From Candidatus Microgenomates bacterium (lineage in GTDB: Bacteria > Patescibacteriota > Microgenomatia > UBA8517), in NCBI GenBank assembly GCA_049523135.1, contig JBEKNE010000001.1:287770-351769 (forward strand): a stretch of DNA of 64,000 nucleotides. Reading direction: 5' to 3'. Each line of letters starts with the position of its first letter. Positions within the stretch are counted from its first letter, which is position 1. A program made the translations under genes and the position numbers. Below the pieces are notes generated by a model. It saw nothing but the letters and a program-made list of their open reading frames with translations, had not been told where the DNA came from and did no database searches. Below, piece by piece: positions 28,666 to 32,004 of the stretch.

Positions 28666-29814
28666 ATGGAAAAAGTCGTAATTGTCATGCCAGCCTGGAA
28701 CGAGGCTGAAAATATCAAGAAAATGATCGAAGTTCTTGTTAAACAGGAATTTCCAAAAATTGATGCAGATATGCAGCTTCTCATTGTTGATAACCACTCG
28801 ACTGACGGAACAACTGAGATTGCCGAAAAAGCCTCAAAAGCTTATAGTCATGTACATATAATTCAGCAAGATAAACCGGGCTTGGGTTGGGCTTATGTGA
28901 GGGGAATGCAGTATGCAGTAACCGAACTCAAAGCGGATGCTGTAATGGAGATGGATGCGGATTTTCAACACCCTCCACACTTCGTTAAACCGATGGTGGA
29001 TGCCTATTTGTCCGGAGCTGAGTACTGCATCGGTAGCCGTTATATCAAGGGCGGTTCGGTACCATCAGAATGGGCGGTAAGCCGGAAGGCAGTAAGCTTT
29101 TTTGGTAATTTATATATCCGTTTGGTTCTTCTTAATTTTAAAATTCATGATTTGACTACCGGCTTTCGTTTAACAAAAGTTAAGGGAGTTCTTGATAAAA
29201 TTGATCTGGAAAAACTTCAGGACCTTGACCGCTTTGCTTATAAAGTTGATCTCCTTTATCAGTCACTCAAAAATTCTAAGAAAACTATAGAAGTTCCACT
29301 TGAATTTGCTTCCCGTACAATGGATAAATCCAAATTTAATTGGAAAGAAATGATTGCAACATTTAAAGTAGCAACGATATTGGGAATAAAAGATAAACAG
29401 AGGTTTATAAAATTTGGAACGGTAGGATTTATCGGATATTTGATTAATGCAATTACTCTTAAAATTTTAACCGGTTTGAATTCTCCGAGTATTGTTGCAT
29501 GGTCTGTACCGGTTGAACTTTCAATTATCAGTAATTTTACCCTGAATAATATTTGGACTTTTAAGAATGAGAAAATTACCGGATTATTCGCTGTAATTAA
29601 AAAATTCCTTGTTTTTAACGGAACGTCTTTGGGGGCTCTCCTTATCCAAACGGTTGCGGGGATTATAAGCGACAGATTTTTGGGAATTGGTGCAAGACAG
29701 ATAACACTGCCTTTCATAATTGTCTTTCTGGTTCTGCCTTTTAACTACCTAATGTATAACCTGGTTATCTGGAGAACTTGGAAGTTTCCGAAGCTCTTCG
29801 GAAAGAGAAGTTAA
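28666..29814 (+). CDS. Polyprenyl-phosphate sugar synthase (Dpm1/GtrB/CsbB-like GT2) fused to a C-terminal GtrA-like 4-TM flippase-type domain
   Basis: N-terminal GT-A with VVIVMPAWNEAENI, LLIVDNHSTDGT and MEMDADFQHPP (DAD motif). The C-terminal ~130 aa are hydrophobic with a GtrA-like pattern (FIKFGTVGFIGYLINAITL...NNIWTF). Confidence 0.8.
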   Translation: MEKVVIVMPAWNEAENIKKMIEVLVKQEFPKIDADMQLLIVDNHSTDGTTEIAEKASKAYSHVHIIQQDKPGLGWAYVRGMQYAVTELKADAVMEMDADFQHPPHFVKPMVDAYLSGAEYCIGSRYIKGGSVPSEWAVSRKAVSFFGNLYIRLVLLNFKIHDLTTGFRLTKVKGVLDKIDLEKLQDLDRFAYKVDLLYQSLKNSKKTIEVPLEFASRTMDKSKFNWKEMIATFKVATILGIKDKQRFIKFGTVGFIGYLINAITLKILTGLNSPSIVAWSVPVELSIISNFTLNNIWTFKNEKITGLFAVIKKFLVFNGTSLGALLIQTVAGIISDRFLGIGARQITLPFIIVFLVLPFNYLMYNLVIWRTWKFPKLFGKRS

Positions 29815-30042
29815 TTTTTCGGCATCAGCTTGCTGCTGTCTTTTTACCAATACGGCAACAGTTAATATTTGATCTTGGGTTGCCTGATAGACAATAATTC
29901 CGCTTTCGATATGGATTTCTTCTCCTGGGATATGAACGGACTCTTTCTGTTTAAGTTCCAATTTAGGACGCTCAGGTAGGAAACCGTTAGCTGTAGGATT
30001 TAGATAATGGTCTTTTTCTCGCCAAAATTCCGGAACTCTCAT
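29749..30042 (-). CDS. RelE/YoeB-superfamily toxin-like small ORF; possibly a degraded remnant
   Basis: ESGIIVYQATQDQILTVAVLVKRQ resembles the RelE/YoeB C-terminal beta-sheet. There is no partner antitoxin ORF, and it overlaps the 3' end of the convergent upstream gene. Confidence 0.3.
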   Translation of the reverse strand: MRVPEFWREKDHYLNPTANGFLPERPKLELKQKESVHIPGEEIHIESGIIVYQATQDQILTVAVLVKRQQQADAEKLTSLSEELRKLPSSPDNQVIH

Positions 30043-30084
30043 AGATAATCTATTAGTCGGAGCTGACGTTAAAAACCCACGGAT

Positions 30085-31275
30085 TTAGAGGAATGGGGCC
30101 CAGTTGGCTATCGGCATTACGTTTTGGGAAATGAAGGCAAGAGAGTAAAGATAAATCGGAATAATTATTACAACTAGAATTATCTTGAATTCTTTTTTGA
30201 CAAGAAAATCTGAGAAAGCCACGAAAAGGAACGGAACTGCGGGTAGAAAATATCGCAAGATGTCCCTATGGGCTACAAAAAGTATCATCAGGAAAAATAT
30301 TCCGGTAAAAGAAGCCAATTCGTATTCTTTCTTCTGGAAAAGTTTGTAAACTCCCAAAGCCCCGATTGCGTAAATAAAGATGATTTCTTCGAGCCAGAAA
30401 GTTCCCACCCAGGGAGCGGAGTAATTGAATATAGCAAATGGTGGAAACATCAGATGAATATTGTCTCCGGATTGAAAATATGCCCAGAAACTCCCTTGGG
30501 TAATTTTATAAATGGAAAATACTAAAACCAAACTCAAGGGAATTAGCAGTAATGGATAAATTTTTTTCAGGTTAATGCCATCCAAAAATTTTTTGATGGG
30601 AGAAACCAATCTGTTTTGGATAATCGGGATTAAAAAGTAAATTGCATAGGAGACAAAAAGTAAAATCCCCGGAGATTTAGTTAGTGTGGCAACAGCACCC
30701 CAAATTCCGCTTGCCCAATATTTTTTATTTTTGAAATAGTATACGGAGGCAATAACTCCCGCTACGAATAGTGGATCGACGGATCCCACAGAGCGCACAA
30801 TTAGCCACCTGGCAGGAAGAATCGAGAAAAGAAATGTCAGAAACATTACATTTTTGGGTTCAACGTATTGAGAAATAAGTTTTTCAAAGAAATAAATTGC
30901 GAGGACGGAGGAGGCGAGAGTTACCAAAAGCATTGCGTACGGGTAATTTGTGACAACTCCCAAGGCTTTAATTAAAAGGGGAAACAGAGGGAAATGGGCT
31001 GCATAATACTCGGCCGGCAGGGGAAACTGGAAATTGGCTTCAATCTGGGATTTGTTGTAGAGAGTTTTGGCAACAACCATATATAAGGGTCCGTCATAAT
31101 TGGCGACAATCGTCTCCATACCATTTTGAGGAAGCGGAATTGTCCAAAATGAAGAAAGTCTGAAGAAAAACGGCAGCCAGATAAGAATCGTTGGAATCAG
31201 GGAAAAAGCGAGGATAGGTAAAAATCTTTTGATTCTGTCTGCCATTACTAAGATATTAGCACGTTGTACGCTCAA
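30085..31275 (-). CDS. Polytopic GT-C-type membrane glycosyltransferase (GT87/DUF2029/PIG-M-like mannosyltransferase family)
   Basis: About 11 TM helices with a conserved segment (AVATLTKSPGILLFVSYAIYFL) similar to 52316..53515. Sits between two Dpm1-like synthase genes. The start may instead be the internal ATG at 31245. Confidence 0.55.
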   Translation of the reverse strand: MSVQRANILVMADRIKRFLPILAFSLIPTILIWLPFFFRLSSFWTIPLPQNGMETIVANYDGPLYMVVAKTLYNKSQIEANFQFPLPAEYYAAHFPLFPLLIKALGVVTNYPYAMLLVTLASSVLAIYFFEKLISQYVEPKNVMFLTFLFSILPARWLIVRSVGSVDPLFVAGVIASVYYFKNKKYWASGIWGAVATLTKSPGILLFVSYAIYFLIPIIQNRLVSPIKKFLDGINLKKIYPLLLIPLSLVLVFSIYKITQGSFWAYFQSGDNIHLMFPPFAIFNYSAPWVGTFWLEEIIFIYAIGALGVYKLFQKKEYELASFTGIFFLMILFVAHRDILRYFLPAVPFLFVAFSDFLVKKEFKIILVVIIIPIYLYSLAFISQNVMPIANWAPFL

Positions 31276-31293
31276 TATGCTAGACTTTTAGGT

Positions 31294-32004
31294 ATGGTGA
31301 AAATAATCGATGAGCTTTCAGTTTTTCTCCCGGCTTATAACGAGGAGGAAAATATTAAGAACGCGGTCTTGCATGTCAGAGAAGTTCTTGAGGATGTTGC
31401 CAAAAAATGGGAAATAGTAATCGTAAATGACGGATCAGAAGATAGGACTGTTGTTATTGCAAACGAGCTAGAAAAAAGCGACAAAAGAATAAAAATAATT
31501 AATCATGCTCAAAATCGCGGTTATGGGGCATCACTTGCCTCAGGATTTTATGCAAGTAAATATAGCTGGATTGCCTTTATTGATTCGGATGGACAATTTG
31601 ATTTTGGTGAAATCACCAAATTTATAGATAAGCAGAAAGAAACCCAGGCAGATTTAGTAATCGGTTACTACAAGAATAGAAAAGTATCTTTTACTAAAGT
31701 TTTAACAAGTAAAATTTGGGAGGCGTTTGTATTTACTTTGTTTGGTTTAAAAGTACGTGATATAGATTGTGCTTTCAAACTGGTTTCAAAAAGAGTTATT
31801 GATGCAATTCCGCGCCTTGAAAGCGAGAGGGGTGCATTTATCAGCAGTGAACTTTTAATAAAGGCCAAAAAAAAAGGCTTCAGGATTGCGGAAGTCCCCG
31901 TAAATCACTACCCCAGGCTCAAAGGTAAGGGCACGGGCAGAAATTTAAATGTGATAATAAAGAGTTTCAACGATTTATTTAAACTTTGGAGAAAAATAAA
32001 ATGA
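31294..32004 (+). CDS. Polyprenyl-phosphate sugar synthase (Dpm1/GtrB-like GT2)
   Basis: LSVFLPAYNEEENI, IVIVNDGSEDRT and FIDSDGQF (DxD) motifs, plus a short C-terminal amphipathic region. The internal ATG was chosen to avoid a divergent overlap. Confidence 0.8.
   Translation: MVKIIDELSVFLPAYNEEENIKNAVLHVREVLEDVAKKWEIVIVNDGSEDRTVVIANELEKSDKRIKIINHAQNRGYGASLASGFYASKYSWIAFIDSDGQFDFGEITKFIDKQKETQADLVIGYYKNRKVSFTKVLTSKIWEAFVFTLFGLKVRDIDCAFKLVSKRVIDAIPRLESERGAFISSELLIKAKKKGFRIAEVPVNHYPRLKGKGTGRNLNVIIKSFNDLFKLWRKIK

Follow-up and report, generated by a model that had tools for sequence, protein, structure and literature searches.

We analyzed a stretch of 64,000 nucleotides (the window) of contig JBEKNE010000001.1 from a Candidatus Microgenomates bacterium, with a focus on the group of glycosylation genes that starts at position 28666. 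The window looks like part of a small, gene-dense bacterial genome, with a G+C content of around 35-43% and nearly all genes on the plus strand. The genes studied here have their nearest relatives in genomes of Candidatus Woesebacteria/Microgenomates, within the Patescibacteria group. An earlier note on this DNA named three open reading frames (ORFs), at 28666, 30085 and 31294, and read them as a single three-component module of the CsbB/GtcA/YfhO type. All three ORFs exist. However, the region is best read as three pairs, each made of a synthase and a glycosyltransferase of the membrane-embedded C type (GT-C), with one built-in GtrA-type domain. We count three two-gene pairs rather than one triplet because an ATGA overlap couples the translation of the gene at 31294 to that of a PMT_2-type GT-C gene of its own, which the note had overlooked. 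The main features are listed below (GT2, glycosyltransferase family 2; DPMS, dolichyl-phosphate mannose synthase; TM, transmembrane; aa, amino acids). Apart from the protein that we call GTCx, gene products are named hereafter by the first position of their genes.

28666..29814, plus strand: putative type-III-DPMS-like polyprenyl-phosphate hexose synthase, 382 aa (Pfam, alignment to 5MLZ, fold)
28666..29394, plus strand: GT2 catalytic domain and interface helices of this synthase, about residues 1-243
29398..29769, plus strand: GtrA-like four-helix TM domain of this synthase, about residues 245-368
30085..31245, minus strand: GTCx, a compact GT-C-fold glycosyltransferase according to its predicted fold, 386 aa
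31093..31095, minus strand: codon of Asp51 of GTCx, a candidate catalytic residue conserved in family alignments
31246..31293, no strand: divergent intergenic region of 48 bp between GTCx and the GT2-PMT_2 operon
31294..32004, plus strand: GT2 polyprenyl-phosphate glycosyltransferase-like protein without TM helices, 236 aa (Pfam GT2, E 2.7e-31)
32001..33542, plus strand: PMT_2-type GT-C, 513 aa from the ATG at 32001 (Pfam PMT_2, E 1.3e-11)
34506..36008, plus strand: second PMT_2-type GT-C, 500 aa (Pfam PMT_2, E 1.6e-6)
36005..36751, plus strand: third GT2 synthase-like enzyme, without TM helices, 248 aa (Pfam GT2, E 3.4e-29)

A DPMS-like synthase with a GtrA-like membrane domain

The fusion of a GT2 synthase with a GtrA-like domain that had been proposed for 28666 is borne out by Pfam. 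Glycos_transf_2 covers residues 6-173 (E 9e-27) and GtrA_DPMS_TM (PF04138) covers residues 249-369 (E 9.8e-13), over positions 1-117 of the 117 in the profile. The C-terminal 130 aa thus match GtrA, with 48.8 bits for a cut-off of 26.1. The fusion is kept in relatives, since both domains are present in all 120 best homologues. When the protein was compared with all PDB chains, residues 3-369 aligned with residues 24-372 of PfDPMS, the DPMS of the hyperthermophilic archaeon Pyrococcus furiosus (5MLZ; E 5e-36), with 31% identity over 344 columns (30% in the catalytic part and 32.5% in the membrane part). The runners-up, by a wide margin, were ArnC (4e-8) and GtrB (4e-5). We also considered a protein of the CsbB/GtrB type and rejected it, given the four-helix GtrA-like tail and the much weaker match to GtrB than to PfDPMS. 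The AlphaFold2 model (pLDDT 82.1) has four long C-terminal helices, and its best Foldseek match is again 5MLZ (E 8.7e-19 over 377 columns), with ArnC and GtrB ranking lower. PfDPMS (5MLZ, 5MM0, 5MM1, 9EP0) likewise combines a GT2 domain, interface helices and four TM helices of the GtrA-like kind in one polypeptide, and the two proteins are collinear over their full length. Because of this end-to-end alignment and of the best structural match, the fusion is the architecture of the type-III DPMS, which is already solved. It is therefore not the novelty suggested by the earlier note, and flipping by the TM domain has also been proposed before (PMC12992685).

The PfDPMS residues that bind its ligands (metal and diphosphate, mannose, dolichyl phosphate) have been described (PMC5526996, PMC12992685). 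Those that bind the donor were defined in the structure paper of 2017 (PMC5526996), whereas Arg117 (in the SRY motif), Arg131 and Ser135 bind the lipid phosphate (PMC12992685). We looked for their equivalents in 28666 and 36 relatives. The DADxQHPP motif corresponds to D97-A-D-F-Q-H-P-P104, where x is F in 32 of the 36 relatives and all other positions are invariant. The SRY motif (S124-R125-Y126) is invariant in the relatives, as are R140 and S144, the equivalents of Arg131 and Ser135. Glu12, Gly68, Leu69, Asp89, His94, Phe177, Arg202 and Lys208 of PfDPMS are all matched by invariant residues of the family. In sum, the ligand-site equivalents D97/D99/Q101/H102, R125, R140, S144, F190, R217 and K223 are the same in 36 out of 36 relatives.

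A paper of 2026 from the same structural group reports a crystal state of PfDPMS in which the TM domain has Dol-P-Man bound in a polar pocket, with the head of the lipid down (PMC12992685). There the flipped Dol-P-Man is held by Asn248, Asn277 and Arg341 (Asn outside Thermococcales), and the pocket is gated by Phe338, which is Tyr in two species (PMC12992685). From this one crystal state, the authors propose that the enzyme may flip its own product (PMC12992685). They also state that the TM domain is dispensable for catalysis, that the pocket motifs are absent from true GtrA proteins, and that the motif-defined type III is found only in archaea, all of them hyperthermophiles (PMC12992685). In 28666, the three pocket positions are N261, N290 and N360, each invariant in the 36 relatives; the last is thus an Asn as in the type-III enzymes from outside Thermococcales. 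On its sequence, the protein is nevertheless type-III-like and not a strict member of the type, because Phe338 is not conserved (Leu), Lys178 is not aligned and Asp39 is replaced by Asn. It also differs from PfDPMS by its host, a bacterium of the candidate phyla radiation (CPR) with nothing pointing to a hyperthermophile, where undecaprenyl phosphate or another polyprenyl phosphate would serve as the carrier instead of dolichyl phosphate. The sugar is most likely mannose from GDP-mannose. This bacterial near-type-III DPMS runs counter to the published restriction to archaea. It carries the one GtrA-type module visible in the window; a search of the small ORFs of the window for a separate GtrA gave none.

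GTCx, a GT-C protein on the minus strand

We took the gene of GTCx as 30085..31245 and not as the ORF 30085..31275, placing its start at the ATG at 31245 because most homologues have 386 aa and begin there. The protein itself has no Pfam match. The earlier note had called it GT87-like, and of this description the GT-C part stands: there is no match to the GT87 profile (PF09594), and PimE comes only 11th among the fold matches. YfhO (PF09586) was rejected as well, with no match in GTCx and 39 relatives even at E values up to 1. PMT_2 (PF13231), which is not found in GTCx itself, matches 8 of 40 close relatives, at best with 5.6e-8. Searches of PDB chains with the single sequence or with a profile of 40 sequences gave no match even at E 10, and hhalign of the GTCx profile, which is too shallow for this purpose (Neff 1.7), gave nothing against the PMT_2 and GT87-like proteins of the window. 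The NCBIfam model NF046093 ('AZOBR_p60025 family cell surface glycopolymer formation protein') matches only residues 44-206, with 40.1 bits (E 2.3e-10) for a curated cut-off of 150 bits, so by sequence GTCx is related to this family and not a member of it. Many homologues are named 'Gpi18-like mannosyltransferase' by JGI. This name is the sole basis for a link to COG5542/GT76, and PIG-V structures are not among the fold matches of GTCx.

The AlphaFold model of GTCx (pLDDT 80.5, pTM 0.86) is clearly of the GT-C type: its first 31 Foldseek matches are GT-C-fold proteins without exception. The best ones include enzymes that use monophosphate-linked sugars, namely ALG12, ArnT, Pmt4, GPI-MT1, ALG3 and PimE. 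The oligosaccharyltransferases AglB, STT3B and PglB score similarly, and the fold therefore does not single out a donor. Judged by the helix hydropathy of the model and the positive-inside rule, the chain starts inside, crosses the membrane with 11 TM helices and ends outside, and in this topology all the loops rich in Lys and Arg are on the inside. Large soluble or external domains are absent. In this respect GTCx resembles ALG12, ALG3, ALG9, GPI mannosyltransferase I and PimE (9S6T, 9S6R, 9WNO, 9DM5), which are also of similar size (around 380-480 aa) and have an acidic residue in the first outer loop. In contrast to this likeness, its identity to the fold matches is 9-14%, with no match to the solved chains at the sequence level. 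Furthermore, AglB, ArnT and Pmt4 score almost as well as the ALG and GPI enzymes, which points to no single GT-C family.

The catalytic hallmark of GT-C enzymes is an acidic residue that lies in their first outer loop. The loop after the first TM helix of GTCx has the motif N-Y-D-G-P-L-Y, which is invariant in 40 close relatives. Among 44 representatives of the family, at 22-45% identity to the protein of the window, only D51 and R331 are invariant, while G52, R146, E/D157, E286, D328 and N375 are conserved in at least 90%. The outward-facing acidic motif that the earlier note expected of the GT-C proteins is thus found in GTCx, and its PMT_2 neighbors have DE-type motifs. As modeled, GTCx thus clearly has a GT-C fold, and its first outer loop bears the conserved acid. 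A library clustered at 50% contains 1311 representatives of the family at E values up to 1e-3. One of them, P0390, ends with a PA14 sugar-binding domain, consistent with a C-terminus on the outside. Because GTCx lacks a large external domain, like the ALG, GPI and PimE-type enzymes, its acceptor is probably a membrane-proximal, lipid-anchored glycoconjugate. GTCx represents an uncharacterized, lineage-wide GT-C family that has no Pfam model.

Some relatives in other phyla have additional parts. P0311, P0321, P0334, P0339 and P0387 carry an N-terminal extension of around 300 aa (L075 and L076 are among the loci of the carriers), made up of a TM anchor, what is probably an external domain, and more TM helices; P0390 has its C-terminal PA14 domain instead. 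We searched these five extensions for a fused GT2 and found no Pfam domain. On a short metagenomic contig (L081, 1383..3490), two tandem GTCx paralogues adjoin a GT-C of the MptA_B family.

Three proposed synthase/GT-C pairs and their possible roles

The second synthase announced by the earlier note is indeed a GT2 protein. Its best relatives among solved structures are GtrB (1e-18), ArnC (9e-17) and DPMS (3e-12), and it has near full-length NCBIfam matches to ArnC, PpgS and dolichyl-phosphate hexose transferase, all below the equivalog cut-offs. Its stop codon overlaps the ATG of 32001 in an ATGA (32001..32004), with a GGAG ten bases upstream. The homologues of 32001 also have 513 aa, and the protein has the acidic motif GDEGRD just after its first TM helix. 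The further pair that had been noted, 34506 with 36005, is likewise a PMT_2-type GT-C and a GT2 protein in Pfam. 34506 has the motif YDQGRD just after its first TM helix, its stop overlaps the ATG of 36005 in an ATGA (36005..36008), and the best NCBIfam matches of 36005 are PgfS and dolichyl-phosphate hexose transferase, below the cut-offs. This pair mirrors 31294/32001 in gene order. Enzymes of the CsbB/GtrB type have two C-terminal TM helices; 31294 and 36005 match GtrB or ArnC better than 28666 does, but no TM segment is predicted in either. Both also match the ArnC, PgfS, PpgS and dolichyl-phosphate hexose transferase profiles over the greater part of their sequence, in every case below the equivalog cut-offs.

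A further gene sits inside the glycosyltransferase operon between the two PMT_2 genes, a position that is kept in most of the species loci examined. Its product matches the NrnA profile at 2e-33, below the equivalog cut-off.

33539..34522, plus strand: DHH/DHHA1 phosphoesterase, NrnA-like (Pfam DHH 5e-18, DHHA1 4e-10)

To study the linkage of these genes, we took one genome per species, which resulted in 71 loci, all of the Woesebacteria/Microgenomates type and at 51-76% identity. Downstream counts used the 60 loci with at least 3 kb downstream, and upstream counts the 60 loci with at least 2.5 kb upstream. The DPMS-like gene is convergent with GTCx in 60 of 60 loci, with a spacer of 18-4634 bp (median 929). 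The GT2-PMT_2 operon is divergent from GTCx in 53 of 60, separated by a gap of 24-133 bp in 50 of these 53, and wherever the GT2 gene is present (53/53) it stands together with its PMT_2 gene. Seven exceptional loci have kept only GTCx and the DPMS-like gene, without GT2, and the DPMS-like gene remains beside GTCx even in loci devoid of any other glycosylation gene. In L078, a distant locus whose GTCx homologue is 40% identical, a GT2-GtrA gene is still convergent with one gene in between, and TrmD is replaced by epimerases. Within the lineage, the link between GTCx and the DPMS-like gene is thus strong, stronger than the link to TrmD, and it is not universal for the family. The gap between these two genes differs from species to species (18 bp to 4.6 kb) and looks like a site of insertions. 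In the window, it holds a small ORF without Pfam or NCBIfam family. One weak homologue of this ORF (30% over 100 aa, E 3e-6) occupies the corresponding place in L069.

29749..30042, minus strand: small ORF of uncertain gene status, 97 aa, overlapping the 3' end of 28666..29814 by 66 bp

A scan of 28500..32100 for promoters and terminators gave counts equal to the shuffled expectation and was not used.

Multi-component transmembrane glycosylation systems of comparable make-up are known in Gram-positive bacteria: CsbB/GtcA/YfhO, GtlA/GtcA/GtlB, and CsdAB/CsdCD/CsdEF with CflA in Lactococcus (PMC8035078, PMC7389260). In the latter, three pairs share CflA as their one GtrA-type flippase (PMC8035078). 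By analogy, a GT-A enzyme would make the lipid-phosphate-sugar, a GtrA-type module would follow, and a GT-C would transfer the sugar outside. A GT-A synthase, a flippase-type module and a GT-C are all present here, linked in 60/60 loci, and as in Lactococcus several GT-A/GT-C pairs stand beside one GtrA-type module. The CsbB/GtcA/YfhO analogy of the earlier note thus fits the domains, folds and linkage as a logic, although none of the proteins belongs to those families. There are also differences in build. The GtrA-type module is part of one synthase instead of a separate small protein, the other two synthases lack TM helices, GTCx is neither YfhO nor GtlB, and teichoic acids or similar acceptors are not known from the Woesebacteria lineage.

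In actinobacteria, the GT2 synthase Ppm1 is paired with the PMT-type GT-C Pmt. Similarly, the Bacillus YkcC/YkcB pair combines a GT2 synthase with a PMT_2-type GT-C (PMC8035078). From their sequence families, 31294/32001 and 34506/36005 would be pairs of this sort, with a GT2 synthase and a PMT/PMT_2-type GT-C. Unlike in Ppm1/Pmt and YkcC/YkcB, the synthases here have no membrane segment or partner domain, and the genes are joined by ATGA overlaps.

Building on the observed domain identities, folds, motif conservation and gene linkage, we infer a lipid carrier, a sugar, a route across the membrane, a pairing of donor and acceptor, and an acceptor. We hold it to be somewhat probable that the locus has three synthase/GT-C pairs and that the DPMS-like synthase is paired with GTCx. 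At the cytoplasmic face, 28666 would transfer a hexose, most likely mannose from GDP-mannose, to polyprenyl phosphate. Its GtrA-like four-helix domain would serve as the membrane anchor of the enzyme and may also deliver the product to the outer face. GTCx would then use the flipped lipid-linked sugar outside, with Asp51 of the first outer loop as the catalytic residue, to modify what is probably a membrane-proximal, lipid-anchored glycoconjugate. The pairs 31294/32001 and 34506/36005 probably make and use lipid-linked sugars of their own, and possibly share the single GtrA-type module, as the Lactococcus pairs share CflA. Modules with different donor sugars, as suggested before, are plausible.

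Several observations weigh against this reading as a whole. In 28666, the gating Phe338 of PfDPMS aligns with L357 (Leu in 32 of 36 relatives), with an aromatic residue (F or Y) two positions further, at 359. Lys178 (in KIL) was aligned by HMMER to A191, beside a gap of four residues, with the invariant K193 (of 'YKVD') two residues past it. The guanine-binding Asp39 is Asn in 32/36 relatives. The 64-kb window has GalU/GalE-like and CDP-hexose genes and none for GDP-mannose, so the sugar may not be mannose. The two genes are convergent and not co-transcribed. Their linkage may in part be inherited gene order, because synteny in the clade is generally high (TrmD is usually adjacent too) and all loci come from one lineage. 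Outside the lineage, distant GTCx relatives stand directly beside Wzx-type Polysacc_synt flippases (L079, L080) or beside another GT-C and a paralogue (L081), and relatives in other phyla have unrelated contexts without glycosylation neighbors (L075, L077). Finally, flipping is no more than a hypothesis even for PfDPMS (PMC12992685), and a separate flippase may be encoded elsewhere in the genome, outside the 64 kb seen.

The role of the TM domain is where an alternative is most serious. That the GtrA-like domain of 28666 is only an anchor and a lipid-binding platform, flipping being done by another protein or not being protein-specific, falls short of even probability and is a real contender. 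The TM domain of PfDPMS is not needed for catalysis, flipping was proposed from one crystal state, and the pocket motifs are absent from true GtrA proteins (PMC12992685); the gating residue is moreover Leu357 here. Yet all 36 relatives have Asn at each of the three polar-pocket positions, the identity to PfDPMS is as high in the TM domain as in the catalytic part and exceeds what a plain anchor would need, and the window has no other GtrA-type protein. Alternatively, 28666 might be a general supplier of lipid-linked mannose for the PMT_2 and YfhO-type GT-Cs of the locus, for instance for O-mannosylation of surface proteins as in actinobacterial Ppm1/Pmt. GTCx would then be a neighbor with another donor, polymerase- or ligase-like, using for example a Wzx-flipped oligosaccharide linked by diphosphate. 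The window has at least 14 GT-C genes (GTCx counted by fold) for only three clear synthase candidates, and it encodes a Wzx-type flippase at 45753..47255. The flippases beside distant GTCx relatives and the name 'cell surface glycopolymer formation protein' of the NCBIfam relative point the same way. We nevertheless find this unlikely: the DPMS-like gene is beside GTCx in all 60 loci, even without other glycosylation genes, and the best fold matches include users of monophosphate-linked single sugars, though AglB, STT3B and PglB score similarly.

The two remaining possibilities are more doubtful still. In the single module of the CsbB/GtcA/YfhO type, 28666 and 31294 would both supply the one adjacent GT-C, GTCx. 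The three genes are adjacent, and 31294 and GTCx may be co-regulated, since they are divergent and 48 bp apart, a layout kept in 50 of 53 loci. However, 31294 overlaps the start of its own PMT_2 gene and is never separated from it in the 53 loci that have it, seven loci have GTCx and the DPMS-like gene without GT2, and no CsbB, GtcA or YfhO family member is among these proteins. The fusion and the adjacent GT-C do not form one operon either, given that GTCx is convergent with 28666 on the opposite strand. Hence, the single module is very improbable. Scarcely better, in our view, are the prospects of a bolder version of the three-pair reading, in which 28666 is a self-flipping synthase (a bacterial counterpart, from a presumably non-thermophilic lineage, of the archaeal type-III DPMS) and the sole flippase for at least 14 GT-Cs, and GTCx founds a new GT-C family that builds a lineage-wide, lipid-anchored mannoglycan of importance to the envelope of these bacteria, which are reduced and host-attached.

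Surroundings and meaning of the locus

The first third of the window has housekeeping genes (SecA, SerRS, Tgt, RF, FtsEX, TrmD), whereas beyond around 15 kb it consists almost throughout of genes for sugar activation and glycosyl transfer. Its sugar-nucleotide genes are GalE, a GalU-like gene and a CDP-hexose pathway. The latter (20464..23718) looks rmlABCD-like at first glance. Its first gene is glucose-1-phosphate cytidylyltransferase-like, and the second encodes a CDP-glucose 4,6-dehydratase that scores above its equivalog cut-off; a 3,5-epimerase-like gene and an RmlD-like reductase come next. As the first two enzymes match CDP-type profiles, we rejected a dTDP-rhamnose pathway in favor of a CDP-hexose pathway; the cluster suggests a route to a CDP-linked 6-deoxyhexose. 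The gene after FtsX, at 13921..15126, encodes a PcsB-like coiled-coil protein that includes a C39-like peptidase domain, and at 16665..17570 a CAP (cysteine-rich secretory protein) domain protein adjoins GalE. The gene at 26236..28011 encodes a protein of 591 aa with two GT2 domains. The N-terminal half of this protein matches profiles for rhamnosyltransferase and GlfT1, and several relatives have kept the gene upstream of trmD. The housekeeping gene trmD itself (28013..28642, minus strand) lies amid the glycosylation genes and adjoins the DPMS-like gene in most related loci, not in all.

The region 30085..63720 is unusually dense in polytopic membrane proteins, with 17 in around 34 kb. Thirteen have GT-C-type Pfam matches (PMT_2, YfhO/PTPS_related, GT87) and GTCx is a GT-C by fold; the remaining three are the Wzx-type flippase and two proteins without match. 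Five PMT_2 genes stand in tandem at 55930..63720. The earlier note listed three YfhO-like genes, of which those at 39382 and 50618 pass the cut-off, while 48936 is below it (25.1 for 28.5 bits) and passes PTPS_related. The two proteins without Pfam or NCBIfam match (47245..48933, plus strand, and 54065..55936, minus strand) have around 10 TM helices each. Homologues of their products (26-28% identity) directly flank the GTCx homologue in L078, and both may be part of the GTCx system.

A literature search on CPR/Patescibacteria with DPMS or GT-C, and on AZOBR_p60025, found no papers. The system is of a known kind, and its points of note are the bacterial near-type-III DPMS and the uncharacterized lineage-wide GT-C family. 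How lipid-linked single sugars such as Dol-P-Man cross the membrane is a long-standing open question, and the self-flipping proposal of 2026 rests on a single hyperthermophilic archaeal enzyme. 28666 offers an independent and possibly more tractable test case, and with its invariant pocket asparagines this bacterial protein shows a type-III-like architecture beyond archaea. For reconstitution work, the corrected pairing (three pairs, not a triplet) matters. The surface chemistry of the Woesebacteria lineage is almost unknown, and the conservation of GTCx across it, like that of a housekeeping gene, points to a core envelope glycoconjugate.

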